From Gammaproteobacteria bacterium (GTDB lineage: Bacteria > Pseudomonadota > Gammaproteobacteria > Natronospirales > REEB76), in contig DATBAJ010000060.1 of NCBI GenBank assembly GCA_036271575.1, positions 5,579 through 69,578 on the forward strand: a DNA stretch of 64,000 bases, in the 5' to 3' direction. The translations under genes and the position numbers were made by a program. Positions 20,716-41,082 of this stretch are shown one piece after another. Each line of letters starts with the position of its first letter. The stretch's first letter is position 1. The notes below the pieces were generated by a model, which had not been told where the DNA came from, searched no databases, and saw nothing but the letters and a program-made list of their open reading frames with translations.

Positions 20716-20762
20716 GATGGCGGGCCCCGGCGCGGCGACGCGCCTGGGCCGAGTACAGCGCG

Positions 20763-20796: not shown

Positions 20797-20852
20797 GTCG
20801 TGCGCGTATCTATATATGAGGAGCTTGGATGAGGATGGCTGGGTCAAGACAT

Positions 20853-21620
20853 ATGCGGCGCTTGAATGCGGCTCTGGGCGCCTTGGGCCTGGGCTTGCTG
20901 CTTGGGTCCTGCACCTCGGCGCCGCCGCAGCTCACGGTGCAGCCGGACGGCTGGACCTACGGTCCGCGGCTGGTGACGCTGCAACTGGAGGCGGCCGAGG
21001 CGCTCAACCTGGACAGCGGCCAGGCGCATGCGCTGTCGATCGGCATCTTCCAGCTCTCGGACCCGGCGGTGTTCGGCACGGCGACCGCGAGTCCCGCCGG
21101 CGCATCGAAGTTCCTGGACCAGGGCGCGGATGCGGATGCCAGCGTCGTGGATTTCGACCGGGTGGTGCTACAGCCCGGCGAGAAACGCACCGTGTACCTG
21201 AACCGCGCCGCCAACTCCCAGTACGTCGGCATCGTGGCGGGCTATTACCAGCTCGTCGTGCTGCAGGACGTGGCGCTGTTCAACATCCCGGTGATCCCCA
21301 AGCCCGTGGGCTGGGTGACCAAGGGCATGATGGCGGTGGGCTTGCAGGGCGCCGACACCGACGGTATCCCGGGCCCGCTGGCCTTGAGCGTCGGCTTCGG
21401 CCCGGATCAGGTGGCGCGCTTCGCCTCGGATACCGCAGGTAGCGCGCGGATCTTCGCCGCCAAAGGCGGCAAGGGTGGCGGCGGTGCGGCCGCCGGTGGC
21501 AAGGGCGGTGGCGGCGGCGGTGCCAAGTCGGGCGGGAAGATGCCCAGCCTGCCCACCAGCCTGCCGAGCATGCCCAAGGCGCCGTCCAGTTCGGGCGGCG
21601 GGAGCAGCAGTGGTGGTTGA
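20853..21620 (+). CDS. tssJ: T6SS lipoprotein TssJ with Gly/Lys/Ser-rich tail
   Basis: Lipobox 'LLLGSC','LNLDSGQAHAL.I.IFQLSD','LQPGEKR','YVGIVAGYY'; precedes tssK. Confidence 0.85.
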   Translation: MRRLNAALGALGLGLLLGSCTSAPPQLTVQPDGWTYGPRLVTLQLEAAEALNLDSGQAHALSIGIFQLSDPAVFGTATASPAGASKFLDQGADADASVVDFDRVVLQPGEKRTVYLNRAANSQYVGIVAGYYQLVVLQDVALFNIPVIPKPVGWVTKGMMAVGLQGADTDGIPGPLALSVGFGPDQVARFASDTAGSARIFAAKGGKGGGGAAAGGKGGGGGGAKSGGKMPSLPTSLPSMPKAPSSSGGGSSSGG

Positions 21621-21659
21621 GATGAGATTCACAGTGTCGAACGATGGAGAGGTAGCGTC

Positions 21660-23045: not shown

Positions 23046-23049
23046 GCGG

Positions 23050-23724
23050 GTGCGACTGATCGACTGCTACGCGGAGTTCCTCATCAAGTTGCACGGCCGG
23101 TTCGCACCCGGCGGCGACGTGGCCGGGCTCGCCTATGAGACCCAGCGCGCCGAGATCGCCGCCAAGCTCAAGGCCTGCGACCGCCGCGCCCAGGAAGCCG
23201 ACATCGCGGCGACCGCGCGCGATGCGGCCAGCTTCGCCGCCATGGCCTACGTGGACGAGCTGGTGCTGTGCTCGGACTGGGCGGAGAAACCGCGCTGGCA
23301 GGCGATGCCCCTGCAACGCGAGTACTACCGCACCACCAACGCCGGCGCGGAGTTCTATACCCGCCTGGAGAAGCTGGGCGAGGACGCACCGGGCCGTGCC
23401 GCGCGCGAACTCTATTACCTGTGCATGGCCTTGGGCTTCAGGGGCAGGTATTTCAGCGACCAGCGTTTCGCCGAGTTCACCGCGGTCAAGCGCGCCAACC
23501 TGCGCCTGCTCTTGCCGGACAGCGATGGCCTGGACCTGCAGGCGGTGACCTTGTTCCCGGAGGCCTATTCCAACGCCCGTGCCGGCGGCAGCGGCCTCTC
23601 CGGCCGCTGGAACGTGTTGCCCTGGGTGTTTGCAGGCCCGGTGCTGCTGCTCCTGGTGGTGGTGCTGCTCTATCACCACTACATCGCCGACACCCTGACG
23701 GGCATCCAGGCGCTCCTGAGATGA
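23050..23724 (+). CDS. tssL: T6SS TssL (DotU), single C-terminal TM, no OmpA domain
   Basis: 'AYVDELVL','PLQ..YY.TTNAGAEFY.RL','YYLCMALGFRGRY'. Confidence 0.95.
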   Translation: MRLIDCYAEFLIKLHGRFAPGGDVAGLAYETQRAEIAAKLKACDRRAQEADIAATARDAASFAAMAYVDELVLCSDWAEKPRWQAMPLQREYYRTTNAGAEFYTRLEKLGEDAPGRAARELYYLCMALGFRGRYFSDQRFAEFTAVKRANLRLLLPDSDGLDLQAVTLFPEAYSNARAGGSGLSGRWNVLPWVFAGPVLLLLVVVLLYHHYIADTLTGIQALLR

Positions 23725-23734
23725 CGGGCCCGCG

Positions 23735-26700: not shown

Positions 26701-27229
26701 GGACGACCAGGCGATCCCGTTCGATTCGGGCTTCATCAGCTATCTGAACCATGCGCTGGAGGGCACGCAGCTCGTGTCCACGCCGCAGGCAGTGACGGTC
26801 TCGGCCTTGCCCACCAACGTGAACACCGGCGCGAAGCTCCTGCCCTCCGACATCATGCTCACCCTGCAGTGCTCGAACGGCATGCAGGAACTGGACAACT
26901 ACAACGCCAAGGCCACCCAGACATTCAATTGGTCGGTGGGCAGCTGCGGCGACGCGGTGGTGCGGATCTTCATCGGTCCCTTGGTGCTGACGCGGGTGTA
27001 TTCCGGCTTGAAGGGTTTCCCGCAGTTCCTGGAGGACTTCAAGGACGGCGAGCACCTGTACAGCGCCGACGACTTCCCGGATTCGCGCGAGGAGCTCGCC
27101 CATGAGGGCGTCACCGCCATCCGCGTGCGCTATGCCTTCAGCGGTCAGAAGCCGGTGATATCGGCGCTGAAGGCGATCCCCCTGCAGACGCCGCTGGAAC
27201 TGGCGCGCTGCTGGACGGACGGGGGTTGA
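23735..27229 (+). CDS. tssM: T6SS TssM (IcmF)
   Basis: N-terminal TMs,'LYVLPWF','GRSSSGKST' Walker A,'IDTAGRY','PLNGI','PVYLLVTKCDL','FRGLFLSS'. Confidence 0.93.
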   Translation: MLKSILKFLLWLLVVVLVCAAVIGFYIYKDWPVSHALLWLAGLALACVVFLVIRRIVIRRRAKKQVQKLISEEQVRREGGLTWSPRALRRDLKLRWQGGIKALKRSRLRLLGDPLYVLPWFVVMGRSSSGKSTAVKNAYLLSPILDMPERQAGSTRNLDWWMYEEAVVIDTAGRYAVPEDVSRDRSEWDQLLALLSRRKQKEPLNGILVVVGADRLLSASADDLLEEGRQVRTSLGHLMNTLAAQVPVYLLVTKCDLIEGFTPFCESLPQESWRQVMGALNGKPGADVMLALDECLDKLNTRLKDLRLLLVERTQNPSIEMMFFPDALYKLRDGLRHFTDGALRGSPYLETPHFRGLFLSSSQQVETDEHGRELHDRGLFLHDLFTKVMPADRGLLVTLPAAERVRRALHHYWLGIAGGLLFAAALVTSFLFLHDYHALHVIDGGLTKVNFAPGDVNQDVLALAQVDATLNDLEAAHDGWLFPWYAGLEPPQLDAISGGFVQRFDQGVIEDMDRRLKNRLALISPGDPAVQVLAEGLARRSLILQARLDDADADDLHQLAPVPTAYWQELQPELTAQSGDALQALYPEYVSYDGDDAAIQREQAVVRDALVELLQKTTGDYAWLLNLANHAPGLNPVALDDFWSGTHPLADPPSVQPAYTAAGFKIIKDFTDEMQKASGGSQSGPVQDYMDKFYDYYQGAYVDAWTQFASRFDEGKDTLADRSQWLAVVGNLAQSDPYTKLLGRMHDELAVLDEDAAELKTSVDYYQEAATFAPASSTKLPAASGGFGKALAGYGTGILTGLSKEAKEINGQVKAIQKLNKKPKVKRGKPKKDLETALGDAAKANQDYEKALTLLAFNSDNASESYANISALYTNPDKVAGSGTAGGNGWAAVQALQLVMGKPAPETQAFWTVYTGPLRMLYQFMAQDTACYLNQQWSGQVLTQTEGVDESKLPELLIGKSGLVWGFVGKTAAPFLSNKYQAGYTPVRVDDQAIPFDSGFISYLNHALEGTQLVSTPQAVTVSALPTNVNTGAKLLPSDIMLTLQCSNGMQELDNYNAKATQTFNWSVGSCGDAVVRIFIGPLVLTRVYSGLKGFPQFLEDFKDGEHLYSADDFPDSREELAHEGVTAIRVRYAFSGQKPVISALKAIPLQTPLELARCWTDGG

Positions 27230-27250
27230 TCGTCATGGAGGACCGCCACC

Positions 27251-29026
27251 GTGGCTGACGAAGCCCAGGAGAAAGCCGAACGCCTGCGGCTGGTCTACCG
27301 GACCGAGACCGCGGGCCGCCCCAGCGACGTGGAGCTGCCGTTCCGCATCCTGGTGCTGGGCGATTTCACGCGCGATGCGCGCGCGGGCTTCGAGGCCGGC
27401 AACAAGGCCTTGCCGGTGCCGCGCGGCGCGCTCGACCCGATCCTGGCCAAGCTCTCGCCCAAGCTCAAGCTGCAGGTGCCGAACCGCCTGAGCGACGCCG
27501 CGGATGCGCCGCTGGAAGTGGAACTCGAATTCAGGAGTCTCGACGACTTCACGCCGGACAAGCTGATCCGCCAGGTGCCGGAGCTGCGCGCCCTGCTGGA
27601 CCTGCGCGCGCTCCTGTGGCGCTACCGGGAACGGGGCGCCGACCTGCGGCAGATCGCCGCGGATATCCAGGTGCTGCTCAAGGAATGGGAGATGGATACC
27701 CGCTCCGGGCGCTTCTGGCACGACGCGCTGAAGTCGCGGGTCGCCGCGCTCGGCGCCCACAACGTGGGCCAGATGCTGGCCGAGATCGACGCGCGCCTGG
27801 GGCCGCAGCTCGACCAGATATTGCATCACCCGGAGTTCCGCAGCCTCGAAGCCTCATGGCGAGGCCTGCAGTTTCTGGCGGAACGGGTGGACCAGACGGA
27901 GAACTGCCTGGTGGAGGTGCTGAACCTCTCGAAGCAGCACCTGCAGGAGGATTTCGAGGACGTGCCGGAGGTGGTGCAGTCGCAGCTCTACCAGCTCGTC
28001 TATACCGGCGAGTTCGGCCAGTACGGCGGGCGCCCCTACAGCCTGCTGGTGGGGGACTTCAGTTTCGGTCCCGGCGCAGCCGACGTGCGCCTGCTGCAGA
28101 ACCTGGCGAGCGTCGCCGCGGTGGCGCATGCGCCGTTCATCGCCGCCGCCGGCCCCGGGTTCTTCGGCCTCAACAGTTTCACGGGCTTGCCGCGGCTGCG
28201 CGACCTGCGCTCGCTCATGGCGGAACCGCAGTTCACCAAGTGGCGAAGCCTGCGCGAGAGCGAGGACGCCCGTTACCTGGCGTTGACCTTGCCGCGCTTC
28301 CTGCTGCGCCGCGGTTACGGCACGCCGGGACTCAAGGCGGCGGCCTTCGATTACACCGAGAGCTTCACCGGCGACGAAGACCGCTGCCTGTGGGGCAACG
28401 CCGCCTATGCCTTCACCACCCGTCTCGCGGCGAGTTTCGCCCGCTTCCGCTGGTGCCTGAACGTGACCGGCAAGGAATACGGCCGGGTCGAGGGACTGAC
28501 GGTGCAGGGCGAGGGACCTGGCATGGTGCCCACCGAGGTGGTGGTGGACGACACCCTGGAAGTGGACCTGTCGCGCTTCGGCTTCATCACCCTGACTGCC
28601 CACCGCGGCGAGAACGAAGTGGCGTTCTACACCGCGACTTCGGTGCAGAGCGTGCCGGAGGAGGAGGGCGCGACCCCGAGCGCCGGCATCGGCCGCAAGC
28701 TCGCCGCGCAACTCCCGTATCTATTGCTGGTGAGCCGCCTCGCCCATTACCTCAAGGTGATGCAGCGCGAGCACCTGGGCGCCTGGCGCAACCGCGCCGA
28801 GGTGGAGAAGGAACTGGGCCAGTGGATCCAGCAGTACGTGACCGACATGGCCAACCCGGCGCCGAGCGTGCGCGCCCGCCGGCCGCTGCGCCAGGCCAAG
28901 ATCGAGGTGGTGGAGGTACCCGGCAAGACCGACTGGTACCTGGTGAGGCTCAACATCACGCCGCACCTGAAATACCTGGGCTCGCCGTTCTCGCTGGCGG
29001 TGAGCGGCAAACTGGAAAAAGCATGA
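27251..29026 (+). CDS. Fused TssB-TssC sheath protein
   Basis: aa ~10-122 align by eye to TssB ('VELPFRILVLGDFT','DDFTPD..IRQVPEL'); from aa ~172 align to TssC ('MLAEID.RL..QLDQILH','SWRGL','RLAHYLKVMQRE','TPHLKYLG'). Confidence 0.9.
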   Translation: MADEAQEKAERLRLVYRTETAGRPSDVELPFRILVLGDFTRDARAGFEAGNKALPVPRGALDPILAKLSPKLKLQVPNRLSDAADAPLEVELEFRSLDDFTPDKLIRQVPELRALLDLRALLWRYRERGADLRQIAADIQVLLKEWEMDTRSGRFWHDALKSRVAALGAHNVGQMLAEIDARLGPQLDQILHHPEFRSLEASWRGLQFLAERVDQTENCLVEVLNLSKQHLQEDFEDVPEVVQSQLYQLVYTGEFGQYGGRPYSLLVGDFSFGPGAADVRLLQNLASVAAVAHAPFIAAAGPGFFGLNSFTGLPRLRDLRSLMAEPQFTKWRSLRESEDARYLALTLPRFLLRRGYGTPGLKAAAFDYTESFTGDEDRCLWGNAAYAFTTRLAASFARFRWCLNVTGKEYGRVEGLTVQGEGPGMVPTEVVVDDTLEVDLSRFGFITLTAHRGENEVAFYTATSVQSVPEEEGATPSAGIGRKLAAQLPYLLLVSRLAHYLKVMQREHLGAWRNRAEVEKELGQWIQQYVTDMANPAPSVRARRPLRQAKIEVVEVPGKTDWYLVRLNITPHLKYLGSPFSLAVSGKLEKA

Positions 29027-29068
29027 CGGCCGGGTCCGCCCGCTGCCGCCTTTGAGGAGTGACGCATC

Positions 29069-29557
29069 ATGCCGATACCGGGAAATCTGACGTTGGTGGG
29101 CAAGGAGCAGGGGCCGATCGAGGGTTCCTGCGACATCGAGGGCCGTGAAGATACCGTGCTGGTGCAGGCCTTCAAACACCTGGTGGAGGTGCCGACCAAC
29201 GAGAACGGCGTGCCTTCAGGCAGGCGCGTGCACCGGCCCTTGATGATCACCAAGGAGGTGGACAAGAGCACCCCTAAGCTCTATCAGGCCCTGTGCAGTG
29301 GTGAGGTGATGAGCGAGGCCACGCTGCGCTGGTACCGGCTGGACGGTGCCGGCGACGAGACTCAATACTTCACGGTGATGCTGCAGAACGCGCTGATCGT
29401 GAAGGTGGATTCCTGGGTGCCGGACGTGCTGGACAAGCAGTTCGCCAGCTACACGAACATGGAGAACGTATGGTTCAGCTACGAGGTGATCCGCTGGACC
29501 TGGGAAGAGGACGGCATCGAGTACGAGGAACACTGGAACCAGGATCCCAACAAATAA
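29069..29557 (+). CDS. hcp: Second, divergent Hcp-family tube protein
   Basis: 'QGPIEGSC...GRED.VLVQAFKH','GRRVHRP..ITKEVDKSTPKLYQAL','E.V.FSY..I.W'. Confidence 0.92.
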   Translation: MPIPGNLTLVGKEQGPIEGSCDIEGREDTVLVQAFKHLVEVPTNENGVPSGRRVHRPLMITKEVDKSTPKLYQALCSGEVMSEATLRWYRLDGAGDETQYFTVMLQNALIVKVDSWVPDVLDKQFASYTNMENVWFSYEVIRWTWEEDGIEYEEHWNQDPNK

Positions 29558-29565
29558 GGTGATGG

Positions 29566-29973
29566 ATGTCCGAGGAGAGGCTATTCAAGCGCCTGCGCCG
29601 GTGGTCGGCGGGCGGTGCGACCGGGATCGACGTGGGCGGCTACGTCGAGTCGGTGCTGCAGGACTTGGGCAGGCTGTACAACACGCGCCGCGGCTCCACG
29701 CCCTTGAGCAGCCTGTATGGCCTCCCGGACATCTCCAACATGCTCGCCAACCTCACGCCGCCGGACGTGGAGCACATCCGTGAGGCCATCGAGACCACCA
29801 CCCGGGAGTTCGAGCCGCGCATGCAGGGGACCAAGGTGAGCCTGCCGGGCGAGGAGAGCTTGGGTGTGCTGCGTTTCGCCGTGCAGGCGGACTTGCTGTA
29901 CGAGAAGACCAGGATCGCACTGCGTTATCAGGTGAACATCGAAGGTGACGGGCGCGTCAGCGTGAGGCAATAA
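29566..29973 (+). CDS. tssE: T6SS baseplate TssE (gp25-like)
   Basis: 'L..LYNTRRGS','YGLPD','FEPRM'. Confidence 0.92.
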   Translation: MSEERLFKRLRRWSAGGATGIDVGGYVESVLQDLGRLYNTRRGSTPLSSLYGLPDISNMLANLTPPDVEHIREAIETTTREFEPRMQGTKVSLPGEESLGVLRFAVQADLLYEKTRIALRYQVNIEGDGRVSVRQ

Positions 29974-29978
29974 CCGAC

Positions 29979-31706
29979 ATGAACCGCGACTACTACCAAG
30001 GCGAATTGAACGCGCTGCGCGAGCTGGCCAAGGAGTTCGCGGCGGCGCATCCGGCGCTGGCCTCGCGCCTCACCGGCCCGAGCCCGGACCCGGACGTGGA
30101 GCGCATCCTCGAGGGCGTGGCGTTCCTGACCGGCAGCGTGCGTGAGAAGCTCGACGACGACTTCCCGGAGCTGGCCCAGACCCTCACCCAGCTCATCTAT
30201 CCGCATTACCTGAAGCCGCTGCCGGCCACCACCATCGTGGAGTTCCGCCCCAAGGACACCCTGCGCCGCAACGCGGTGATCCCCACCGGCACCTACGTGG
30301 ATTCCAGCGAAGTGCAGGGCACCCACTGCCGCTTCCGCACCTGCTTCGACGTGCGCATCTCGCCCTTGAGCCTGGTGCAGGCGCAGCTCCTGGAACGTCC
30401 GGGCGGCCGGCGCGCCATCGACCTGACCCTGCAGCTGAACGGCCTGGCGCTCAGCCAGTGGGACGAGGAGAAGTTGCCGCTGTTCATCGGCGGCGACTTC
30501 GCCGGAGCCGCGGACCTGTACATGCTGTTGCTGCGCGGGTTGGAGCGCATCGTGATCTCCACCGGCGCCGGCGAGCACGAGTTGCCCGCCTCGGCGCTGA
30601 AGCCGCTCGGCCTGGATGACGCCCAGGCCATGCTGCCGCGGCCGTCGGCTACGCTGCCGGCTTTCGGCCTGCTGCAGGAGTATTTCCTGCTGAAGGAGAA
30701 GTTCCTGTTCGTGGAGCTGAGCGGCCTGCAGTCCTGGCGGCAGCGCGGCAACGGCAACCAGTTCCACGTGCGTTTCGACTTCGCGCCCACCGAGACGCGT
30801 TTCCCGGTGGTGGACCGCGAACGCTTCGTGCTGCACAGCACGCCGGCGGTGAACCTGTTCCGCCATGACGCGGACCCGATCCTGCTCACCCACCGCCGCG
30901 CCGCGGTGCGGGTGCGCCCGGCGGGCGTAAGCGACGGCAACATCCAGGTGTATTCCGTGGACGAAGTGGTGGGCCACACCCGCGGTTCGGCGCTGCGCCA
31001 GGAATACCGGCCGGTGAACCTGTACGGCGCCGGCAACGCGCAGGTGCCTTATTACGACATGCATTTCGTGCGCGCCGCCGAAGGCGGCGGCGTGGAGCCG
31101 CAGTTGACGGTGGCCTATCCGCCGGGCGTGGAACTGCCGGCGCAGCAGACCCTGATCCTGGGCCTGACCTGCAGCAACGGCCGGCTGCCCTCGCAGCTCA
31201 GGCCCGGCGACATCTCGCGTTCCACCAGCGGCACCTCGGACCTGATCTCGTTCCGCAACATCCTGCCCCCGGCCGACGGCGCCGAGCCGCCGCTGGGCGA
31301 GGCGGTGCTGTGGCGGCTGCTCTCGCACCTGGCCCTGAACTTCCTGCCCATCGCCGACGCGGAGACCCTGCAGGCACTACTGCGCCTCTACGTGGTGCAG
31401 GGCGGCGGCCAGTCGCCGCGCGAGGTGGCGAACCACCGGCGCATCGCCTCCATCTCCAAGGTGGCCGTGCGCGCCGGCGACCGGCTGTTCGGCGCGGGCA
31501 TGATGCGCGGGCAGGAGATCCGCGCCAGCCTGCGCCAGGACCACTTCGCCTCGGCGGGGGACATGTTCCTGTTCGGCAGCCTCCTGGACCGGGTGCTGGC
31601 GACATTCTCCACCCTCAACAGTTTCAGCCTATTCACGCTCATGGATGAGCAAACCGGAAGCAGCTATACATGGCCAGCGAGACTGGGCAAGCGCGCGCTG
31701 ATCTGA
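29979..31706 (+). CDS. tssF: T6SS baseplate TssF
   Basis: 'YYQGEL..LRELAKEFA..HP','DPDVERILEGVAFL','LDDDFPEL','PAVNLF','LWRLLSHL.LN','WP.R.G'. Confidence 0.96.
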   Translation: MNRDYYQGELNALRELAKEFAAAHPALASRLTGPSPDPDVERILEGVAFLTGSVREKLDDDFPELAQTLTQLIYPHYLKPLPATTIVEFRPKDTLRRNAVIPTGTYVDSSEVQGTHCRFRTCFDVRISPLSLVQAQLLERPGGRRAIDLTLQLNGLALSQWDEEKLPLFIGGDFAGAADLYMLLLRGLERIVISTGAGEHELPASALKPLGLDDAQAMLPRPSATLPAFGLLQEYFLLKEKFLFVELSGLQSWRQRGNGNQFHVRFDFAPTETRFPVVDRERFVLHSTPAVNLFRHDADPILLTHRRAAVRVRPAGVSDGNIQVYSVDEVVGHTRGSALRQEYRPVNLYGAGNAQVPYYDMHFVRAAEGGGVEPQLTVAYPPGVELPAQQTLILGLTCSNGRLPSQLRPGDISRSTSGTSDLISFRNILPPADGAEPPLGEAVLWRLLSHLALNFLPIADAETLQALLRLYVVQGGGQSPREVANHRRIASISKVAVRAGDRLFGAGMMRGQEIRASLRQDHFASAGDMFLFGSLLDRVLATFSTLNSFSLFTLMDEQTGSSYTWPARLGKRALI

Positions 31707-32674
31707 AGCGCGAGCTGATCGCGAACAGCAGGGAGTACGACTTCTACCAGGTCGTGCGCCTGTTGCAGCGCCTGCGTGGCGAAGAGGAGGGCGGCGGCGT
31801 GCGCTTCCGGCCCCTGCTCGGCCTGGAACGCAGCGAGTCCGGCATCGCCGGCATGCGCGAGACCGAGGCCGGCTACGAGATCGAACCGACCTTCATGGCG
31901 CTGTACGGCGCGTCCTCACCCCTGCCGGTGTGGTACACCAGCGAGTTGCTGGAAGACGAGTGGCATGAGCAATCCGCCGCCCGCGACCTCCTGGACATGC
32001 TGCATCAGCAGATCTATCCGCTGCTGTATGCCGCCTGGCGCAAGTACCGGTTCGCGCTCAATGCCATCGAGGCGGAAGGCGGGGGCGAGCGCTACTGGGG
32101 GATGCTGTACGCCTTCATGGGTCTGTACGACCCGCAGATGCGGGCGCGGGTGCCGGATGCCGCCGGCTTCCTGGGCCAGACCGGTCTCTTCTGCCGCCAG
32201 GCGCGCAGCGCCGCGGCGCTGGAGGCGATGCTACGCGCGAGCCTGGGGCGCCGTGACGTGGAGATCGTCGAGTGCGTGCCGCGCCAGGCGGCGATCCCCG
32301 CCGACCAGCGCCTCAACATCGGCAAGGCCGGCTGCACGCTGGGCAGCGACGCGGTGGTGGGCGAGCGGGTGCTGGACTGTTGCGGGCGTTTCCAGATCCG
32401 CATCGGGCCCATCGATGCCGAGACCTTCAGCCTGGCGACACAAGAGGGCGGCCTGATCGAACGCATCCGGCGCATCTGCACCGAGTTCCTGGTGCAGCCG
32501 CTGGAATGCGAGGTGGTGCTGGTGCTGGACGAGGGCGTCGTGCAGCCCGCGGCACTGGGCGGCAACGATCTCAATCAGATGATGGGATTGAACGGATTCG
32601 CGAGCCTGGGCACCGATGCCTGGGTGGTGGGCGGCACCAATGCCGCCGGCCTGGAAGTGGGATTCATGCTCTAG
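31670..32674 (+). CDS. tssG: T6SS baseplate TssG
   Basis: 'YDFYQVVRLL','FMALYGASSPLP.WYT','AWRKYR','F.IRIGP'. Confidence 0.93.
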   Translation: MASETGQARADLKRELIANSREYDFYQVVRLLQRLRGEEEGGGVRFRPLLGLERSESGIAGMRETEAGYEIEPTFMALYGASSPLPVWYTSELLEDEWHEQSAARDLLDMLHQQIYPLLYAAWRKYRFALNAIEAEGGGERYWGMLYAFMGLYDPQMRARVPDAAGFLGQTGLFCRQARSAAALEAMLRASLGRRDVEIVECVPRQAAIPADQRLNIGKAGCTLGSDAVVGERVLDCCGRFQIRIGPIDAETFSLATQEGGLIERIRRICTEFLVQPLECEVVLVLDEGVVQPAALGGNDLNQMMGLNGFASLGTDAWVVGGTNAAGLEVGFML

Positions 32675-32721: not shown

Positions 32722-34245
32722 GTGGCGACGCCGGTATTCACATTCAAGAGCACCGCTTATGCGGCGGACGTGTTCAGCGTGGTGGACTTCCAGGGCACGG
32801 AAGCCATCTCCAGCCTCTATCAGTTCGACATCGGCCTGAAGTGCGACGTCTCCAAGACCGTCGATCTGAACACCCTGCATGCGAGTGCGGCGACGCTCTC
32901 GATCGCCAGCGACGGGACGACCAACGCCTACAGCGGCGTCTTGGCCTGGGTGGAGCAACGGCAGGTGGCGGGCGGCTACCGCCATTACCGCGTGCGCCTG
33001 GTGCCGCCGCTGTGGCAGCTGTCCCTCAATACCGGAACCAGCGGTTTCGTCTCCCAGACCCATCTGCAGGTGCTGCAGCAGTTGTTGAAGAACGCCGGTT
33101 TCACCTCGGGCGTGGACTTCGACACCAGCGCCGCCATCGCGAAATATCCGCCGTACGACTTCACCTGCCAGTACCGCGAGAGCAACCTGGCCTTCGCCAG
33201 CCGCTTGATGGAATACGAGGGCATCTATTTCTATTTCGAGGAAGTGAACGGCCAGTGCAAGCTGATGCTGGCGGACGGACTCGCCTATCCGGCCTTGCCG
33301 GCCCACGCCACCATCCCCTTCACCGATCCCGGCAGCACCAAGGATTACGATTCCATCGTCGGCCTCACCCAGCAGCTGGCGACGGTGCCGGCCGAGGTGG
33401 TGGTCACCGGATACACCTACCAGCAGCCGACGCTGGCGGTGACCGGCACCGGCGCGGTGAAGGTGAACGGTAGCGCCGTGACCGGGAGCCACAAGGCCTG
33501 GCTCTACGACCACCTGGTGCAGGACACCGATGCGGTGAAGCAACTCGCCCAGGTGCGCGCCCAGGAACAGGGTTGCTGGGCCTGCGTGTATTCAGGCAGC
33601 GGCGCGGTGCCCGGCCTGCGCGCCGGCTACACTTTCACCCTGGAGAGCCATCCGGTCGCCGCTTTCAACCGCGGCTATCTGGTGGTCTCGGTACAGCATT
33701 CCGCGCGCAACCTCGACCAGAGCTGGGGCACCGGCAGCTCCGCTTCCCAGGATGGCGGCAGCAACGATGCCTATTACAGCAACCAGTTCACCCTGGTGCC
33801 CTCGGGTGTGCAGTTCCGTCCGCGCCAAGTCACGCCGAGACCGCGCGTGGCCGGCTTGTTGTCGGCGACGGTGTACCAGTCGGCAGCGGCCAATGCCCTG
33901 GACTATGTCACGGGTGCCGATTCCGTCACCGGCATCAACGCCTTCACCCTGCCCATACCGCCCATGGATGACCAGGGCCGCTATCAGGTGAGCCTGCCCT
34001 TCGCCGACGGTTCGGTGCCGGGCTCGAGCGCGGTGTCGGCGTCGATACGCATGGCACAACCCTCCGCCGGCATCGGCGACATCGACGGCTTCGGCAACGG
34101 CGCGCAGTTCATGCTGGAGCCCGGCGCCGAGGTGCTGCTGGCCTTCGTGGATGGCAACCCGGACCTGCCGCTCATCTGCGGCGCGGTATACAACGGCCGC
34201 ATGATCTCCTGGCTGACTTCCGCGGTCTCCGCGCTGGCCTTCTGA
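32722..34245 (+). CDS. vgrG: VgrG (TssI), gp27-like hub + gp5 OB-fold only; no C-terminal beta-helix
   Basis: 'F.GTEAISSLYQFDI','QYRESNLAF.SRLME.EGIYFYF','YSNQF...P....FRP','DDQGRY.V','RMAQP.AG','GAEVLLAFVDGNPDLP.I.GAVYN' then stop 16 aa later. Confidence 0.88.
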   Translation: MATPVFTFKSTAYAADVFSVVDFQGTEAISSLYQFDIGLKCDVSKTVDLNTLHASAATLSIASDGTTNAYSGVLAWVEQRQVAGGYRHYRVRLVPPLWQLSLNTGTSGFVSQTHLQVLQQLLKNAGFTSGVDFDTSAAIAKYPPYDFTCQYRESNLAFASRLMEYEGIYFYFEEVNGQCKLMLADGLAYPALPAHATIPFTDPGSTKDYDSIVGLTQQLATVPAEVVVTGYTYQQPTLAVTGTGAVKVNGSAVTGSHKAWLYDHLVQDTDAVKQLAQVRAQEQGCWACVYSGSGAVPGLRAGYTFTLESHPVAAFNRGYLVVSVQHSARNLDQSWGTGSSASQDGGSNDAYYSNQFTLVPSGVQFRPRQVTPRPRVAGLLSATVYQSAAANALDYVTGADSVTGINAFTLPIPPMDDQGRYQVSLPFADGSVPGSSAVSASIRMAQPSAGIGDIDGFGNGAQFMLEPGAEVLLAFVDGNPDLPLICGAVYNGRMISWLTSAVSALAF

Positions 34246-34255
34246 GGAACGAGGC

Positions 34256-36889
34256 GTGCCCGGCATCCGCATCACCAAGCCTTTCAAGCTCAGCCTGCTG
34301 CACCGTACCTACCAGTACCGGGGCGAGAACAAGCTGGCGGTGAGCGTGCTCGGCATGTTCTCCCTGACGGAACCGGGCAAGGTGTTGCCGGAGAACGAGC
34401 TGTGGCGCAAGACGGTGGGCGCGCTCGGCCGTGACGGCATGTTGGATGCGGCCATGCCCAAGTCCCGGGCGGAGTTCCTGGTGAACGGCAGCTTCCATGC
34501 GCCGGGCGGCACGCCGGTGCCAGCGGGCTACGCGCGGGTGAAGCTCGGCAAGCTGGACAAGCGCATCAACGTATACGGCGATCGCCATTGGAAACGGGCT
34601 GCCGGCGTCAGCGTCGGGGTCTCGGATCCCCTGCCCATGCAGGACATGCCGCTGGATTTCGCCCACGCTCTCGGCGGCAAGGAGCACAAGCCTAACCCGG
34701 TGGGCAAGGGCATCGACGCGCTCGAGGTGGATGGCGAGTCGCGCATCCTGCTGCCGAACCTGGAGCTGCCCGGCGCGCTCATCGGTTCGCCCTCAGACCG
34801 CCCGGCACCCGCCAGCTACGGCATGCTGGATCCCATGTGGCCGCAGCGCTACGCCAAGGTCGGCACCTACGACCAGAAATGGATGAAGGAGCGCGCCCCG
34901 GGCCTGGCGGATGACCTCAAGTGGGAATACTTCAACGTGGCCGCCGAGGACCAGTGGAGCGATGACTATTGGCGCGGCGACGAGGAGTTCGAACTCCACA
35001 ACCTGCATCCTGCGCGGCCCCTGATCCAGGGGCGCCTGCCGGGCCTGGCGGCGCGCGCCTTCGTGGTGCATGGCCACGGCAAGGACGGACGCCTGGAGGA
35101 ACTGGCGACGCGGCTCGACACCGTGCATTTCTTTCCCGGCGAGGAGGGCGGCATCTGCATCTGGCGCGGCGACACCCGCATCACGACCGACGACGCCAGC
35201 GACGTGGCGCAGATCATGATCGCCTACGAACGCAGCGCCGATCCACGCCGCAGCCTGGAACACTATCAGGACGCATTGCGCCGCCGCCTGGACCGGACCA
35301 GCCGGGCCATGCTGCTACTGGATGAGCGCGACCTCATCCCCGACGGCGACAAATCCGGCCTGGCGGAAGTCATCGAGCGCTCTACCGACCACGACAGCAA
35401 AGAAGGCCTGTTGGCCAAGAACCAGAAGCAGAGGATGAAGGAGGAGTCCGCCAAGACGCGGGCGCGGCTGGCGGAATTGGGGATAGACACCGCGGTGCCC
35501 GAACCGCAGGCGGAAGCATCCGTCCCCAACCGTGAGCTGCCCGACATCGCCAAGCTGTTAGCAGACGCCCACAAGCAGCGCGCAGCGGCAGAGGCACAGG
35601 CCAAGGAGAAGATGGAAGCCATGTGCAAGCAGCTGGGCATCGATCCCAGCAAGGTCATGGGTCCCAAAGCGGCCGCCAACTTGCCGCGCTTCTCCGCCGC
35701 GGAGCGCCTCGCCAAGGTACGGGCGATGCTGGATGGCAGTCCGGGCTCCGAGGAACTGCTGAAGAAGATGACCGGCATCTCCGATCTGCAGGTGCTGGAA
35801 GCCAAGTTCCAGGCGGCCGAGGATGCATTCCGCAGCAGCTATGCCCTGGCAGCCCATACCCTGAGCAGCGGGCTGCCGGCGGAGCGCCAGGCCGGGCTCG
35901 TGGCCTTGCGGGCGGAAGTGCTGCAACGCCTGAAGCACGGTGAGTCCCTGGCGCGCATGGACCTGGCGGGCGTGGACCTGTCCGGTGCGGACATGAAGGG
36001 CGCGGACCTCTCCGGGTGCTATCTCGAATACGCGAATCTATCCGGTGCCGACCTCACGGGCGCCAGGCTCAAGGGCGCCATCGCCACCCACGTCAACTTC
36101 AGCGGCGCCAAACTCACCCAGGCGGACTTTGCCGGCGCCAACCTCGGCAAGTCCAGTTTCGTGGATGCCAAGGGGGCGGGCGTCGACTTCAGCGGCGCGG
36201 TGGTGAGCGAGACCAGCTTCGAGGCGAGCGCCTTCCCGGGGGCGAAGTTCCTCGGCGGGCAGATGATGAAGACCGATTTCAGCGGCGCCGATTTCAGCCG
36301 CACCGACTTCCAGAAGCCGCTGTTCATGGATTGCCGGCTGGACGGCGCCAAGCTGACCGGTGCGACACTGCAGCGGGCCATCGTCATGGGCGGCAGCGCC
36401 AAGGGCCTGGACCTGAGCGAGGCCCGGGGCGAGGCCCTGCTGTTCGTGAACGTGGACCTGGATCATCTCAAGGCGGCGCGGGCCGAGATCAACAAGCTGC
36501 GCCTGGTGGGCGCAGAGACCCGCGCGCGCGGCGCCGACTTCAGCGGCGCCAAGCTGCCGGGCTCCAACCTGCGCGGCATCGACCTGGAGGAAGCCAACTT
36601 CGAGCGCTCCATCCTGGATGGGGCGGATCTGAGCGAAGCCAGCTTGCGCAAGGCGCGCTTCCAGGGAGCCAGTGCCCAGCGCGCCCATTTCATGCAGAGC
36701 GACCTGGAGGGAGCGAAGCTCTCCAACTGCAACCTCAAGGAGGCCATGCTCAACAAGGCGCGCCTGGTGCAGGCAGACCTGACCGGCTCCAACTGCTTCG
36801 GCGCCGAGTTCCTGGGAGTGACGGTGGGTGAGACCCGTTTCCACGGTGCCAACCTCAAGCGCACCAAGCTCAAGGACTGGCACCCGTGA
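34256..36889 (+). CDS. DUF2169 domain + pentapeptide repeats (TagAB-like spike chaperone)
   Basis: 'LD..MPK..AEFLV.G','VYGDR.W','NPVGKG','LPNLE','WPQR...GTYD..W','FN.A..DQW','LDTV' and C-terminal A[D/N]LxG repeats. Confidence 0.88.
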   Translation: MPGIRITKPFKLSLLHRTYQYRGENKLAVSVLGMFSLTEPGKVLPENELWRKTVGALGRDGMLDAAMPKSRAEFLVNGSFHAPGGTPVPAGYARVKLGKLDKRINVYGDRHWKRAAGVSVGVSDPLPMQDMPLDFAHALGGKEHKPNPVGKGIDALEVDGESRILLPNLELPGALIGSPSDRPAPASYGMLDPMWPQRYAKVGTYDQKWMKERAPGLADDLKWEYFNVAAEDQWSDDYWRGDEEFELHNLHPARPLIQGRLPGLAARAFVVHGHGKDGRLEELATRLDTVHFFPGEEGGICIWRGDTRITTDDASDVAQIMIAYERSADPRRSLEHYQDALRRRLDRTSRAMLLLDERDLIPDGDKSGLAEVIERSTDHDSKEGLLAKNQKQRMKEESAKTRARLAELGIDTAVPEPQAEASVPNRELPDIAKLLADAHKQRAAAEAQAKEKMEAMCKQLGIDPSKVMGPKAAANLPRFSAAERLAKVRAMLDGSPGSEELLKKMTGISDLQVLEAKFQAAEDAFRSSYALAAHTLSSGLPAERQAGLVALRAEVLQRLKHGESLARMDLAGVDLSGADMKGADLSGCYLEYANLSGADLTGARLKGAIATHVNFSGAKLTQADFAGANLGKSSFVDAKGAGVDFSGAVVSETSFEASAFPGAKFLGGQMMKTDFSGADFSRTDFQKPLFMDCRLDGAKLTGATLQRAIVMGGSAKGLDLSEARGEALLFVNVDLDHLKAARAEINKLRLVGAETRARGADFSGAKLPGSNLRGIDLEEANFERSILDGADLSEASLRKARFQGASAQRAHFMQSDLEGAKLSNCNLKEAMLNKARLVQADLTGSNCFGAEFLGVTVGETRFHGANLKRTKLKDWHP

Positions 36890-37935
36890 CCCGCGAGGAA
36901 CTGGAATCCGCCATCGCCCGCGGCCAGCCGATCCGCGACCAGGACTTCTCGGGCGCCAAGCTGGCGGGGGCGAAGCTCGGCGGCGGCATCTTCGAGCGCG
37001 TGAAGTTCGACGCGGCCGACCTTGCCGGCGCCAGCCTGCGCGAGAGCCTGCTCACTTCAGTGGACTTCAAGGCCGCGGCGCTCGCCGGTGCGGACCTGCA
37101 ACACAGTGTGTTTTCCAAGTGCAGCTTCGAGAAAGCGCGGCTGGACGGCGCCAACCTCAGCCGCAGCCAGTTCATGGAGGCCGAACTCTCGGACGCGGCC
37201 ATGGCAGGGGTGGGGCTGGAACGCACGGTGCTGCACCAGTGCCGCCTGCTCCGCGCGGGTCTGGCGAAGGTGCACTTCGACAAGACCCTGATCTTCGAGA
37301 CCCAGATGATGGGCGCGGACCTTTCCGGCGCACGCTTCACCCATGTGGTACTGATGAACGGCGACTTCAGCGGCTGCCGCTTCGACGGCTTCTCGGCGCA
37401 GCAGGCCTTCCTGCAGGGCGGCAAGTTCGCGGGCCTGGACCTCTCGGGGCTCAGCTTCGCCGCCTGCCAGCTGCGCAACTGCGACCTGACGGGCACCAAG
37501 TTCCGCAAGGCCATGCTGGAGCGGACCGGCTTCATGGAATCGAAGCTCCAGGGCGCGGACTTCTCCGGCGCGCGCCTCGCCAACACGGTGTTCTCCGGCG
37601 CGGACCTGGAAGGCGCAGACCTCTCGAGCAGCGACCTGACCCAGGCCCATTTCCAGGGTGCCAGGCTGCGGCGCGCGCGCTTCGACAAGTGCCGCCTCGA
37701 CATGGCGCAGCTCACCGATGCCGATTTCACCGCGGCCAGCTTCAAGGGCTGCGAGATGAGCTATACGGATCTCTCCCGTTCGATACTGGATGGCGCGGAT
37801 TTCTCCGACGCCAACATGTTCAAGGCCAGGCTGCACGCCATCCATGAAGATGCGACCCGCTGGCCCGCGAGCAAGAACCTGGCCTCCGGTACCGATCCCG
37901 ATCAACTCGAAGCCGAGACCTGGCGACCCGCCTAA
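36886..37935 (+). CDS. Pentapeptide repeat protein (TagB-like)
   Basis: Nearly continuous (A/x)(D/R)(L/F)xx repeats. Confidence 0.9.
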   Translation: MTREELESAIARGQPIRDQDFSGAKLAGAKLGGGIFERVKFDAADLAGASLRESLLTSVDFKAAALAGADLQHSVFSKCSFEKARLDGANLSRSQFMEAELSDAAMAGVGLERTVLHQCRLLRAGLAKVHFDKTLIFETQMMGADLSGARFTHVVLMNGDFSGCRFDGFSAQQAFLQGGKFAGLDLSGLSFAACQLRNCDLTGTKFRKAMLERTGFMESKLQGADFSGARLANTVFSGADLEGADLSSSDLTQAHFQGARLRRARFDKCRLDMAQLTDADFTAASFKGCEMSYTDLSRSILDGADFSDANMFKARLHAIHEDATRWPASKNLASGTDPDQLEAETWRPA

Positions 37936-37938
37936 ACG

Positions 37939-38598
37939 ATGGAGCACAACGCCATGCAGACCCAGATCAAATCCAATTACACGGCCGCGGCCGACCTGGT
38001 CCAGGCCAAGGTGGTGGACGCCGGCGAGGACATCTGCCGGCTCACGGGCCCCGCCGGCAGCTTCACCGCGCGGCGCGCCGTCTCCTGCCTGCTGCAGCCG
38101 GCCGCGGGTGACACGGTGCTGGCCGCCGAGGTGGCGGGCAGTACCTGGATACTCGCGATACTGGTGCGGGGCGAGAGCCCGGCCGTGCTGCAGTTGCCCG
38201 CGGACAGTACCGTGAAGGTGGCGCAGGGCGGGCTCAAATTCGCCGTGCAGGAAGACCTCACGCTGGCGGCGGGCCGCGAGCTCAGCGCCGTGGCGCCGCA
38301 GGTCACGGTGCAGGCGGTGCGGGCCGGCTTCACGCTGGGCGCGCTGCAACTGGCGGCGGGCCTGGTGGAGGCGACGGTGGAACAGGTGAAGACCGTCGCC
38401 GAGTTCCTGGACACGGTGGCAGAGCGGGTGCGCCTCAAGGCCGGCTCCTCGCACCGCGAAGTGGAGGACCTGGAGCACCTGCAGGCCGGGCAGCTGTATT
38501 ACTCGATCAAGAACGTGCTCAACCTGCGCGGCAAGCACGCCGTGATGTCCGCCGAGAGCGAAGTGCGCCTCGACGGCGAGCGCATTCACCTGGGCTGA
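37939..38598 (+). CDS. DUF3540-like protein (TagC-like)
   Basis: 'ARRAVSCLLQPAAGD.VL','WILAIL','S.R.V...E.L.AG','V.LDGERIHLG'. Confidence 0.82.
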   Translation: MEHNAMQTQIKSNYTAAADLVQAKVVDAGEDICRLTGPAGSFTARRAVSCLLQPAAGDTVLAAEVAGSTWILAILVRGESPAVLQLPADSTVKVAQGGLKFAVQEDLTLAAGRELSAVAPQVTVQAVRAGFTLGALQLAAGLVEATVEQVKTVAEFLDTVAERVRLKAGSSHREVEDLEHLQAGQLYYSIKNVLNLRGKHAVMSAESEVRLDGERIHLG

Positions 38599-38609
38599 GG
38601 AGACATTCC

Positions 38610-39014
38610 ATGTTCGTCAACACGCAGATGGGCGGGCTCGCCTTCGGTTTCCCGGACGTGTGCTTCACGCCGATCCTGGTGCCGGTGCCGATCCCCTACC
38701 CGAACTTCGCCACCGGGCTCCTGGCCATGCCCTTCACCGCGGCGCTGAACGTGCTGAACGAGTGCATGCCGACCCACACCATCTCCACCATGGGCACCAT
38801 CAGCTTCGGCGACCAGCCGGGCATCGAGCTGGGCATCCTCTCGGGCCTGTTCATGGGGCCATGCCACACGCTGATCCCGAGCTTCACGCTGCTGAGCGAC
38901 GGCATGCCCACCTCGCGGCTCACCAGCATGACCGCCCATAACGGCTTCGCCCTCAACGCGCCCGGCCTGTCCATCGTGCCGAGCCAGTTCACCACCCTTT
39001 GCCTGATGCCCTGA
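38610..39014 (+). CDS. DUF4150 / PAAR-like spike tip protein (PIPY motif), no fused toxin
   Basis: 'FPDVC.TP..VPVPIPYPN','S.GD.PG...GI.SG','S.T....G.P..RLT..T.HN','PSQ'. Confidence 0.88.
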   Translation: MFVNTQMGGLAFGFPDVCFTPILVPVPIPYPNFATGLLAMPFTAALNVLNECMPTHTISTMGTISFGDQPGIELGILSGLFMGPCHTLIPSFTLLSDGMPTSRLTSMTAHNGFALNAPGLSIVPSQFTTLCLMP

Positions 39015-39039
39015 ACGGGCGCATCGCAGGAGTCTCGCC

Positions 39040-40407
39040 ATGGCCATGAACCGCGTCCTCAACTCCATCTGGGCAGAGATATCCGCCTGGGGTTCGATCG
39101 TCAAGACCGCCACCAACCCCTACACACCGAGCCCCGGCTCGGCCGATGACACTTCCAACAACCAGGGCCTGGCGGCGCTCGCCAGCGGCTCGCCATTCAT
39201 CGTGGTGAACCGCTCCGGCGTCTCGCCGGACGTGGCGGTGGGCACCAACCTCGTGGACGGCGCCAACGCCTCGCCCAGCGCCATCGAGGAGAACAACGGC
39301 GCCTACCAGGTGGTGCGGCAGTACGGCGACATCTACCTGTTCAACGACGGCAACGTCATCGCCTGGGGCGGCAATGGCAAGAACTTCAGCTTCGGCAACG
39401 GTTATGAAGAGAACCACGCCTGGGCCAACCAGGCCTGTGTCTATAACAACGAGACCTTCCAGATCCCGCTGGGGGCCATGTCCTCGTTCAGCCCGAGCAC
39501 GCTGCCCAACGGCATGTTCCCGGATTCGAGCGCAGCGATCAGCGACTGGGAATGGCTCGGCGGCAACGTGTCCAAGAGCTGGGGCAACGACTACAGCTAC
39601 AGCTACGGACGCTCCTATGAATGGAGCGGGGGCCCGAACAACTACGTGGATGCCTTCGGCAACACCGGTGCCGCGCTCACCGACGTGATGCAGGGCAAGC
39701 ATTGCAGCTTCAGCTACGGCAACGGCTACGAGGAGGCGCTGATCGGATGGACCCCCACCAGCACCTGGTTCCATGCCGACGACGCGAGCTCGCCTTACAA
39801 GAGCCGCGTCAGCGACAGCTGGACCTCATCCAACCTGGGGTCCAGCTGGACCGCGGCCAACCTGCTGGTGTCCAAGGCCTTCGGCCCCACCTACGATTAC
39901 CACTACGGCCCGACGCTGTCGGTACAGGAGGGGCCGAGCGAGGAGCACGTCAACGGCTCCAGCTGGAGCACGGTGACCGGCGACAGCAACGAGACCGTGA
40001 ACGGCAACAGCAGCAGCACCGTCAACGGCAACGCCAACGACACCATCAACGGCGACCAGACCGCCATGATCAAGGGCACCGCCCTCGAGCAGCACTGGGG
40101 CCGCAAGTCGGAATTCTTCATGGGCGGCAAGAGCGAGATGTCACTGGCCGCCTGCGACGAGATCAACCTGGCCGCCAAGCTGGAGATCGTCGGCGGCGTC
40201 GCCACCGAGATATTCCTGGGCGCCAAGCTGGAGGTGGCCCTGGGCGCGCTCATGGAGATCAAGGTCGCCGGGGCCTTCGAGGTGAACAACGGCGCCAAGA
40301 TCGAGATCACCAATGGTGCCAAGCTTGAGATCGACAACGCCGTGGAGGTGGAGGTGACGGACCTGGCCTCGGTGTCCAGCGCGCTGGTGAAGATCTTCGC
40401 CCCCTGA
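39040..40407 (+). CDS. Hypothetical protein with C-terminal gp5-like octapeptide beta-helix repeats; candidate detached spike
   Basis: About 18 consecutive 8-aa repeats (NETVNGNS, SSTVNGNA, NDTINGDQ ... IEITNGAK); last gene of the T6SS run. Confidence 0.65.
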   Translation: MAMNRVLNSIWAEISAWGSIVKTATNPYTPSPGSADDTSNNQGLAALASGSPFIVVNRSGVSPDVAVGTNLVDGANASPSAIEENNGAYQVVRQYGDIYLFNDGNVIAWGGNGKNFSFGNGYEENHAWANQACVYNNETFQIPLGAMSSFSPSTLPNGMFPDSSAAISDWEWLGGNVSKSWGNDYSYSYGRSYEWSGGPNNYVDAFGNTGAALTDVMQGKHCSFSYGNGYEEALIGWTPTSTWFHADDASSPYKSRVSDSWTSSNLGSSWTAANLLVSKAFGPTYDYHYGPTLSVQEGPSEEHVNGSSWSTVTGDSNETVNGNSSSTVNGNANDTINGDQTAMIKGTALEQHWGRKSEFFMGGKSEMSLAACDEINLAAKLEIVGGVATEIFLGAKLEVALGALMEIKVAGAFEVNNGAKIEITNGAKLEIDNAVEVEVTDLASVSSALVKIFAP

Positions 40408-40413: not shown

Positions 40414-41082
40414 TCAGCTCACCGCAGCCAGCAGCGCGGCGCCCGCCTCGATCGGCGTCGCCTGGCTGAGGTCGGTCTGCTGGGGCAGGGCGAACTTCCT
40501 GCCGCCCTCGTCCTTGGGCATCAGCGCCAGCGGGCTCTGCATCACGCCCACGATGCGTCCGCGCCGCACGTCGATGAGCGGACCGCCGACGGTGCCGGAA
40601 TAAGCCGAACCTTCCACCAACAACTGCCGGTCGCCCGCGGGTCCCAGCACCTTGGCGGCGAGACAGCCGCTGCGGGTGATGAGCGCGAGGGAGCCGTGAC
40701 GGCCGAAGGCGAAGCCCAGATACATGACCTCGGTGCCGGGGATGAGCATGGCGCTGTCACCCAACAGATCAGGAGGCAGGCGCAGCTGGGCCGGATCGGC
40801 TAGTTTCAGGAGCGCCACGCCATTGGAGGCGTCCACCTTCACCACCACGGCCGGGAAGCAGTTCAACTTGTCGCGGCTCGTGGGCTGGAATCCCGTGGGA
40901 TCCTCGGCGGGTGAGACCAGGAGCTCGGTCTTGTCCTTGACCAACTCGGCGGCGGTGAGCAGGTAACCGTCTTCGCGCACGGCGAAGGCGCTGCCCAGGA
41001 AATCCACGGCATTGGTGGCCGGGTTCCTCTCCAGCAGCATCGCGCAGGAGGGTGCCAGGGTCTGGAAGAGTTGTTCCATCAC
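40414..41082 (-). CDS. Trypsin-like (HtrA-type S1) protease fold lacking the catalytic triad
   Basis: 'GSAFAV..DGYLLTAAELV','GVALLK','GTVGGPLID..RGRIVGV'. Confidence 0.75.
   Translation of the reverse strand: MMEQLFQTLAPSCAMLLERNPATNAVDFLGSAFAVREDGYLLTAAELVKDKTELLVSPAEDPTGFQPTSRDKLNCFPAVVVKVDASNGVALLKLADPAQLRLPPDLLGDSAMLIPGTEVMYLGFAFGRHGSLALITRSGCLAAKVLGPAGDRQLLVEGSAYSGTVGGPLIDVRRGRIVGVMQSPLALMPKDEGGRKFALPQQTDLSQATPIEAGAALLAAVS

Follow-up and report, generated by a model that had tools for sequence, protein, structure and literature searches.

We analysed a 64,000-nucleotide stretch of a gammaproteobacterial genome (Natronospirales, REEB76; assembly GCA_036271575.1, contig DATBAJ010000060.1, positions 5,579 to 69,578 of the forward strand), hereafter the window, which carries a complete type VI secretion system (T6SS) cluster at positions 13600-40407, as judged from Pfam and NCBIfam matches. 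With tssA-M, clpV, hcp, and vgrG in one cluster, the system is of the canonical type (T6SSi), its TssM protein scoring under the TIGR03348 cut-off but containing the IcmF-related_N domain. On the 3' side of tssG, vgrG is followed by five further genes up to position 40407, and the spike appears to be encoded in two pieces: a short VgrG made up of the gp27-like hub and the OB-fold and, at the end of the run, a separate 455-residue protein corresponding to the needle that a long VgrG carries behind its OB-fold. The source assembly measures 1.98 Mb and is 72% complete, close sequence is present in soil metagenomes, and all genomes compared below are incomplete assemblies of uncultured organisms. 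The features of the locus are as follows, the two halves of the spike being given first.

32722..34245, plus strand: needle-less VgrG of 507 amino acids, with gp27-like hub, OB-fold, and 16-residue tail (Pfam, TIGR03361, shared end point)
34195..34242, plus strand: 16-codon tail past the OB signature, corresponding to the linker and first needle strand of fused VgrGs (alignments; putative role)
39040..40407, plus strand: predicted VgrG needle of 455 amino acids, the complete post-OB half of a long VgrG (hhalign to P0066, fused VgrGs of genomes G453-G455, junction alignment)
39040..39123, plus strand: N-terminal 28 residues of the needle, resuming where the short VgrG stops, with about 3 columns of overlap (MAFFT junction alignment)
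39916..40347, plus strand: 18 in-register octapeptides, residues 293-436 of the needle, those at 301-348 being gp5C-like (period count, PF22178, T4 gp5C profile matches, PHROG 430)
34256..36889, plus strand: TvpAB (DUF2169 plus pentapeptide repeats), PAAR chaperone (Pfam; naming after PMC13373197)
36886..37935, plus strand: TvpB, pentapeptide repeat protein (Pfam)
37939..38598, plus strand: TvpC (DUF3540), published as a trimeric OB plus beta-prism template that is replaced by VgrG (Pfam, E 1.7e-50)
38610..39014, plus strand: stand-alone DUF4150/PAAR-like (PIPY) tip, no effector domain (Pfam Tox-PAAR-like, E 1.1e-26; PIPY motif)
13600..32674, plus strand: T6SS core, comprising tssA, B, C, clpV, hcp, J, K, L, M, a TssB-TssC fusion, a second hcp, tssE, F, and G (Pfam, NCBIfam)
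40414..41082, minus strand: trypsin/HtrA-like protein with altered catalytic positions (Pfam Trypsin_2)

The VgrG protein scores above the TIGR03361 cut-off and consists of a Phage_GPD domain (residues 26-330) and a Phage_base_V, or OB, domain (418-490), with nothing matched by Pfam thereafter. It possesses the hub and OB-fold of a canonical VgrG (TssI) and lacks the gp5-like beta-helix expected in the same chain, ending 16 residues past the OB signature. The original prediction, made from the sequence of the window, had described a 507-residue VgrG with this end point, followed 10 bp later by a gene with its own ribosome-binding site, and had seen no room for a frameshifted remainder. Its coordinates and lengths were right: the next gene starts at 34256, 10 bases on, behind an AGGA-type ribosome-binding site, and reading all three frames past the stop yielded a stop, the tvpAB frame, or an early stop, and no vgrG remainder.

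The end point is shared. A profile of five short VgrGs was used to assemble a set of 61 homologous proteins, in which all 27 near-full-length close homologues (50-100% identity, the window's own VgrG being counted among them) stop 16 residues past the OB signature, and both C-terminal fragments in the set end there too; two further partial proteins do not include the end region and are thus uninformative on the stop. Because 27 of 27 close homologues stop at the same point, the vgrG stop is not an assembly error, a possibility that had been raised with the original prediction. VgrGs of the sister genus end 13-14 residues past the signature, and the same break is found in independent assemblies down to a hub identity of 44-48%. 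One contig from another soil study spans the stop, with the codon unchanged at its middle base, and a third contig, from a second soil strain, reads TAA for TGA there (a single contig at depth 4.4, possibly an error). The predicted layout of a short vgrG with a separate needle gene is likewise conserved in other genomes: four of the ten loci fetched with a needle reach back to vgrG, and all four have the short form and the same gene order (several needle loci come from the same genomes as G008, G009, G011, and G012 and were counted once). A phylum sample of 400 genomes, scored for at most three candidates each, served as a control: all 37 other VgrG matches in it lie in frames of 625-1047 codons.

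The last gene of the run is preceded by AGGAG. At residues 293-436 of its product, all 18 octads carry Gly (14) or Ala (4) at one phase, a register reached by none of 10,000 shuffles (shuffle mean 6.8), and glycine spacing across the needle family peaks at 8, 16, and 24. The claim of about 18 strict octapeptides therefore holds for the 8-residue period, but the repeats are of two kinds. Against the gp5C/VgrG pattern of octads with G at position a, V at g, and N/D at b, six units (301-348) are T4-like, reading V/I-x-G with N/D next in four of six and fitting the T4 gp5C consensus (as excerpted from PMC3004832), whereas eleven later octads are of an E-rich type unlike these six. The likeness to gp5C that had been expected of the C-terminus was also recovered by profile methods, Gp5_trimer_C (PF22178) matching at 302-348 (E 6.6e-5) and the needle family profile matching T4 gp5C chains at E 1.3e-4 and PHROG 430 at E 1.9e-6. 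Short rung-like runs at 91-128, 173-198, 221-233, and 275-300, with loops between them, suggest that the needle may form one long beta-helix with side loops, of some 35 strands and very roughly 160-170 Å at T4 geometry.

Sequence comparison indicates that the whole 455-residue protein, and not just its 18 octapeptides, is the missing VgrG half. Natural VgrGs of 870-920 residues carry a colinear copy of the needle after the OB-fold, and the closest of them, P0066 (878 residues), shares 37% identity with the needle profile across 290 columns (hhalign probability 100, E 1.2e-39). A HMMER search with the same profile returned 388 matches at E 0.001; among the 149 new matches listed, 73 have at least 700 residues and 65 of these contain a VgrG hub, while many weaker matches arise through the repeats alone and in about 20 the match begins at profile position 45-95. 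A sister family within the order provides three genomes (G453, G454, and G455) that hold the same cluster, including the TssB-TssC fusion, with a single uninterrupted vgrG of 877-879 codons. Residues 1-474 of the encoded proteins match the window VgrG at 37-38% identity and residues ~530-850 match the needle at 29-31% (E ~1e-33), and no needle gene was found after paar in any of the three. Homologues of the needle thus do occur as the C-terminal halves of full-length VgrGs, as the original prediction had asked of its BLAST check.

The two halves also meet without a gap. When 23 post-OB slices of fused VgrGs were aligned with 12 stand-alone needles using MAFFT, the needles were found to start about 14 columns past the OB signature, and the halves therefore abut, with an overlap of about 3 columns. 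On these alignments, the 16-residue VgrG tail is likely to be a docking element and the first 28 residues of the needle are likely to be docking strands. In the AlphaFold2 model of the fused P0066, confidence holds across the junction as far as residue ~570, and strands are placed at 488-493, 524-527, and 539-544.

Within the family, a VgrG match is present in 12 of 41 genomes, in every case short or cut by contig ends; 11 of these 12 also have the needle, and in the exception, G015, a contig end interrupts the cluster. No hub or needle match contains an internal stop, so that both halves are intact, and across 20 genomes of two genera the needle is present in 11 and neither half in 8. The system as a whole is patchy, with 13 of 41 genomes positive by the TssB-TssC fusion gene. 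The window's short VgrG is the only one in its assembly, and a full-length VgrG elsewhere in the genome that might serve this system was sought and not found in three relatives of 92-95% completeness or in G001. One TIGR03361 locus each was found in G000, G009 (95% complete), G012 (92%, 20 contigs), G016, and G001, and in four of these five PF22178 matches the needle gene only. No second hub-needle pair was found in 11 of the 12 VgrG-positive genomes; G005 has two, and G011 has a second, contig-cut hub match. The exchangeable or detachable spike of the original prediction gained no direct support from this distribution. Colinearity with fused VgrGs, a gapless break, intact and co-occurring halves, and the lack of any other VgrG found are thus matters of observation. 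In wider searches, only four weak matches outside the family came from a 400-genome class sample, and tblastn of the needle gave no match on plasmids.

The second cluster of G005 (contig C32) encodes a 477-residue VgrG and, after 59 bases containing a ribosome-binding site, a 488-residue needle, followed by tvpAB, tvpB, tvpC, and paar. This is the order expected from fission in place, and in the main clusters the needle gene instead lies behind paar. The whole G005 locus (L033, G005:C32 2589-12770) contains two short vgrG genes and two tandem Tvp cassettes with divergent needles. A quick tree of the hub and OB-fold (84 sequences, midpoint root, 15 near-copies left out and 4 rows skipped by a motif filter) places 16 short VgrGs on one side of a branch with a Shimodaira-Hasegawa-like approximate likelihood ratio (SH-aLRT) support of 100, inside a 40-row group with 24 fused forms, where they adjoin P0066/P0101 (89, unstarred). 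The needle tree unites 14 of the 15 stand-alone needles in one group (99). A single fission in the ancestor of the family would be the simplest reading of both trees, and fused homologues, synteny, and trees together support a needle encoded as a separate gene and split from VgrG after the OB-fold, as had been predicted.

Pairwise identities of hub, needle, and TvpAB across five genus-level loci showed no correlation (rho values of -0.02 to 0.22, based on 10 non-independent pairs with a narrow range), a result that does not bear on needle exchange either way. Hub and needle diverge faster within the genus than TvpAB, TssG, or PAAR, the identities being 52-67% for the hub and 57-66% for the needle vs 68-74% for TvpAB, 75-88% for TssG, and 89-95% for PAAR.

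Short VgrGs of other kinds were also encountered. P0074, P0076, P0077, and P0078 (481-504 residues) form a second class that ends 30-33 residues past the OB signature, and P0078 represents a 17-member cluster with one member named Byssovorax (Polyangiaceae). Five stand-alone needle-like proteins (P0174, P0196, P0235, P0239, and P0240) begin, by eye against the fused P0188, where the VgrGs of this class stop, and the class possibly represents an independent fission. A third group (P0070, P0071, P0073, and P0075; 530-548 residues) ends 54-87 residues past the signature and is placed elsewhere in the hub tree, P0071 standing for another 17-member cluster.

The four genes between the two halves (TvpAB, TvpB, TvpC, and DUF4150 PAAR, located 3' of vgrG) constitute the gene set of a Class III Tvp system when their Pfam matches are compared with the published definition. 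The intervening DUF2169, pentapeptide, DUF3540, and DUF4150 genes of the original prediction are therefore this published cassette, one member of which, the DUF3540 protein, mimics VgrG in combining an OB-fold with a beta-prism. According to the available text of Monlezun, Earl, and Coulthurst (2026; PMC13373197), TvpAB, TvpB, TvpC, and a small DUF4150 PAAR protein form a pre-complex in which TvpC, a predicted OB plus 81-Å beta-prism trimer, binds PAAR as a VgrG mimic and is later replaced by a long VgrG, the mode of replacement being left open. The VgrGs of such systems are described there as single chains, usually of 700-800 residues. The vgrG-tvp-paar arrangement corresponds to synteny type C of Sachar et al. 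(2025; excerpt of PMC11883445), and Burkholderia counterparts of the cassette are listed in a 2026 review (excerpt of PMC13584744). The Class III system of Serratia marcescens VgrG1 shares the order vgrG-tvpAB-tvpB-tvpC-paar, the small effector-less DUF4150 PAAR, and a long needle; unlike it, the window has no Vai1-like (DUF3192) gene after vgrG. By analogy, the two-step assembly in which VgrG replaces TvpC would also apply to this cluster.

The trypsin-like gene is convergent with the needle gene, 7 bases from its stop. Ten of the 41 family genomes contain a homologue, which is always the immediate neighbour of the needle gene, and an eleventh copy lies after paar, on the same strand, in the second cluster of G005 (L033 4250-4933). 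The gene was not found in G015 and G016, where the clusters are cut, nor with the window query in the fused genomes G453-G455, where G454 gave weak generic matches. The protein lacks the His-Asp-Ser triad: in the window's genus an alignment with a DegP-like chain puts Glu at the catalytic His position, and 9 of the 10 homologues read have Val or Ala at what is presumably the catalytic Ser position, placed by the trypsin Ser motif (the tenth was not parsed). Cleavage of VgrG by this protein was considered and dropped, the catalytic positions being altered and the gene not found in the fused genomes. The protein may instead be an adaptor, an accessory factor for the split spike, a role that stays a lead because one evolutionary event underlies the pattern.

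We consider it probable that an ancestral long-needled vgrG of about 880 codons was split into a hub and OB gene and a needle gene, the latter now behind the Tvp/PAAR cassette, and that the two halves re-join non-covalently as a working spike. Re-assembly is the part that we infer, and precedents for non-covalent needles exist in T4 gp5C and in Francisella VgrG on PdpA. Like T4 gp5C once cleaved, the needle would trimerise alone, forming a triple-stranded beta-helix that carries inserted loops, and its first strands would complete an antiparallel sheet begun under the OB trimer by the 16-residue VgrG tail. Its C-terminal end would take the TvpAB-TvpB-PAAR cap over from TvpC, as VgrG1 does in Serratia, and the hub would seed Hcp polymerisation. 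Because the PAAR protein carries no effector domain and no effector/immunity pair was found beside the cluster, the needle-PAAR tip itself is likely to be the delivered element. A conserved hydrophobic, toxic needle tip was not supported, the C-terminal hydropathy ranging from -0.12 to 0.83 across seven loci. A bolder extension, which we regard as rather unlikely, holds that needle and PAAR form a self-assembling dart, plugged in via the dead-protease adaptor and left in the target like T4 gp5C, and that canonical T6SSs have repeatedly undergone fission after the OB-fold, Polyangia-like bacteria and other lineages having independent break points of their own.

Several results weigh against the proposed split and re-assembly. 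The N-terminal piece of the needle (28-35 residues) taken alone does not match the fused junction significantly (hhalign probability 1.5, E 0.034), and its register therefore rests on colinearity; the PF22178 match falls under the curated cut-off. The AlphaFold2 monomer of the needle has a mean predicted local distance difference test score of 40, and residues 580-830 of the fused P0066 model mostly lie below 60, so the trimeric beta-helix fold of most of the needle is something we infer. Both trees are quick trees without bootstrap, the second needle of G005 (P0130) is an unplaced long branch outside the needle clade, leaving one origin unproven for it, and a full-length VgrG could be unassembled in some genomes. 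The remaining structural results weigh on neither side. A complex prediction with three copies of VgrG 369-507 and three of needle 1-192 scored 0.00, with an uncertain partner fold and controls that did not fold; in the needle alignment that it used, 26 fused rows were out of place across roughly the first 30 columns. The hub outweighs the rest of the fused model in fold searches, which scarcely test the needle, and the ESM Atlas returned feature matches of 0.90-0.93 to phage gp5-like clusters, which are leads only, and structure matches with template modelling scores <0.35.

Other explanations of the short VgrG were weighed on the same evidence. The freed needle might no longer dock and might serve as a second TvpC-like template or as loose cargo, with the short VgrG used needle-less; TvpC is a documented precedent in this very cassette for a free, PAAR-binding beta-prism mimic outside the final spike, and in the main cluster the needle gene has moved away from vgrG. 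This is nevertheless improbable: all 27 homologues have a VgrG tail of the same length, the columns in which it stops are those in which the needle begins, and the needle retains proximal strands with no known use other than sitting beneath an OB-fold; TvpC itself is kept intact (72-82% identity), and PAAR caps a beta-prism end that the short VgrG does not have. That TvpC is instead the permanent needle of the short VgrG, leaving the 455-residue protein dispensable or an alternative tip, draws on its predicted trimeric, PAAR-binding beta-prism of 81 Å (PMC13373197, in excerpt), but seems very improbable: the OB-fold that TvpC would bring is already present in the short VgrG, TvpC shows no significant similarity to the needle, fused relatives carry both TvpC and a full VgrG in the same order, and the needle gene is kept in 11 of 12 VgrG-positive genomes. 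Misassembly, or gene decay in a T6SS that is being lost, would sit well with sources that are all metagenome assemblies and with the patchy distribution of the system in the family (13 of 41 genomes), but it is already largely refuted and barely credible, since assemblies made independently show the break at hub identities as low as 44-48%, the stop is spanned by an independent contig, each half has its own start and ribosome-binding site, and neither internal stops nor broken core genes were found.

Compared with known systems, the closest likeness to the split proposed here is the T6SSii of Francisella, whose PdpA/VgrG spike (PDB 6U9E/F/G) likewise places hub and OB-fold in one chain and the beta-helix needle in another. 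There VgrG has 164 residues and is without hub and OB-fold, both being supplied by PdpA (PMC5924787 and PMC10653695, in excerpt), and residues 1-477 of the fused-VgrG model, corresponding to the short VgrG, superpose on residues 177-772 of 6U9G chain A with Z 16.9 and a root-mean-square deviation of 4.3 over 399 aligned positions. PdpA, however, has a mass of 95 kDa, a lid, and an identity of 5%, and it belongs to a divergent T6SSii, whereas here an ordinary VgrG hub serves a canonical T6SS with all core genes. The Francisella gene set (Igl/Pdp, no ClpV, no TssE; excerpt of PMC10653695) also differs from that of the window, where ClpV and TssE are present and the hub belongs to TIGR03361, and the needle here, of 430-520 residues with inserted loops, occurs with a Tvp cassette and with fused and intermediate states in close relatives. 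The split is thus an event independent of that in Francisella. With phage T4 gp27-gp5*-gp5C the system has the octapeptide VxG needle in common, gp5C being after maturation a separate, self-trimerising chain able to dissociate (PMC3004832, in excerpt); in T4 the genetic split precedes the OB-fold and a proteolytic one follows the lysozyme domain, whereas the split here is genetic, lies 16 residues past the OB-fold, and involves no lysozyme domain. The original prediction was right that the chain is split after the OB-fold rather than before it as in T4/P2, but such a split had already been described for Francisella PdpA/VgrG. In some Acinetobacter strains, one sentence of PMC6838775 mentions 'split vgrG' loci with separate N- and C-terminal VgrG domains; the passage seen gives no break point, conservation, or function, and the loci could be sporadic cases or splits of the phage type. 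Full-text literature searches, covering few subscription papers, turned up no account of a post-OB fission conserved in a canonical T6SS or in a Tvp system. The principle of a post-OB split is therefore known from Francisella; a seamless fission of recent date in a canonical T6SS, with fused and intermediate forms still extant, did not turn up in that literature.

The remainder of the locus offers some further observations. The second sheath gene (27251-29026) is a natural TssB-TssC fusion of 591 residues, kept in 16 of 66 genomes of the order with split and fused spike types alike, and a second Hcp (29069-29557) follows it directly before tssE; together they may act as a baseplate-proximal initiator of sheath and tube. 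Beyond the trypsin-like gene, the minus strand encodes a 1958-residue protein (41134-47010) with ten Ig/cadherin-like repeats and a C-terminal end that by eye resembles a beta-barrel, likely a surface adhesin, and similar genes follow the cluster in loci L001, L002, L004, and L009. On the other side, a 291-residue open reading frame (12326-13201, minus strand) is divergent from tssA and is, by eye, FHA-like in its C-terminal part, making it a possible T6SS regulator. Promoter and terminator scans of the locus stayed at chance level, and none of the listed holders of close sequence was an RNA dataset.

A single-chain VgrG is the textbook hallmark that separates T6SSs from phage tails, with the remote Francisella system as the one well-known exception. 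Here a canonical T6SS would have re-evolved a two-chain spike in the recent past, its fused, split-in-place, and relocated states being readable in neighbouring genomes. The split shows where VgrG can be cut and yet be kept by selection, and it implies a non-covalent joint between hub and needle able to survive firing. With hub and needle added separately, the question of TvpC replacement left by the 2026 Tvp paper would become testable, and the tandem clusters of G005 offer a natural place for testing hub-needle specificity or exchange. More broadly, a short, 'truncated' vgrG together with its unannotated neighbours in environmental genomes can amount to a complete spike.

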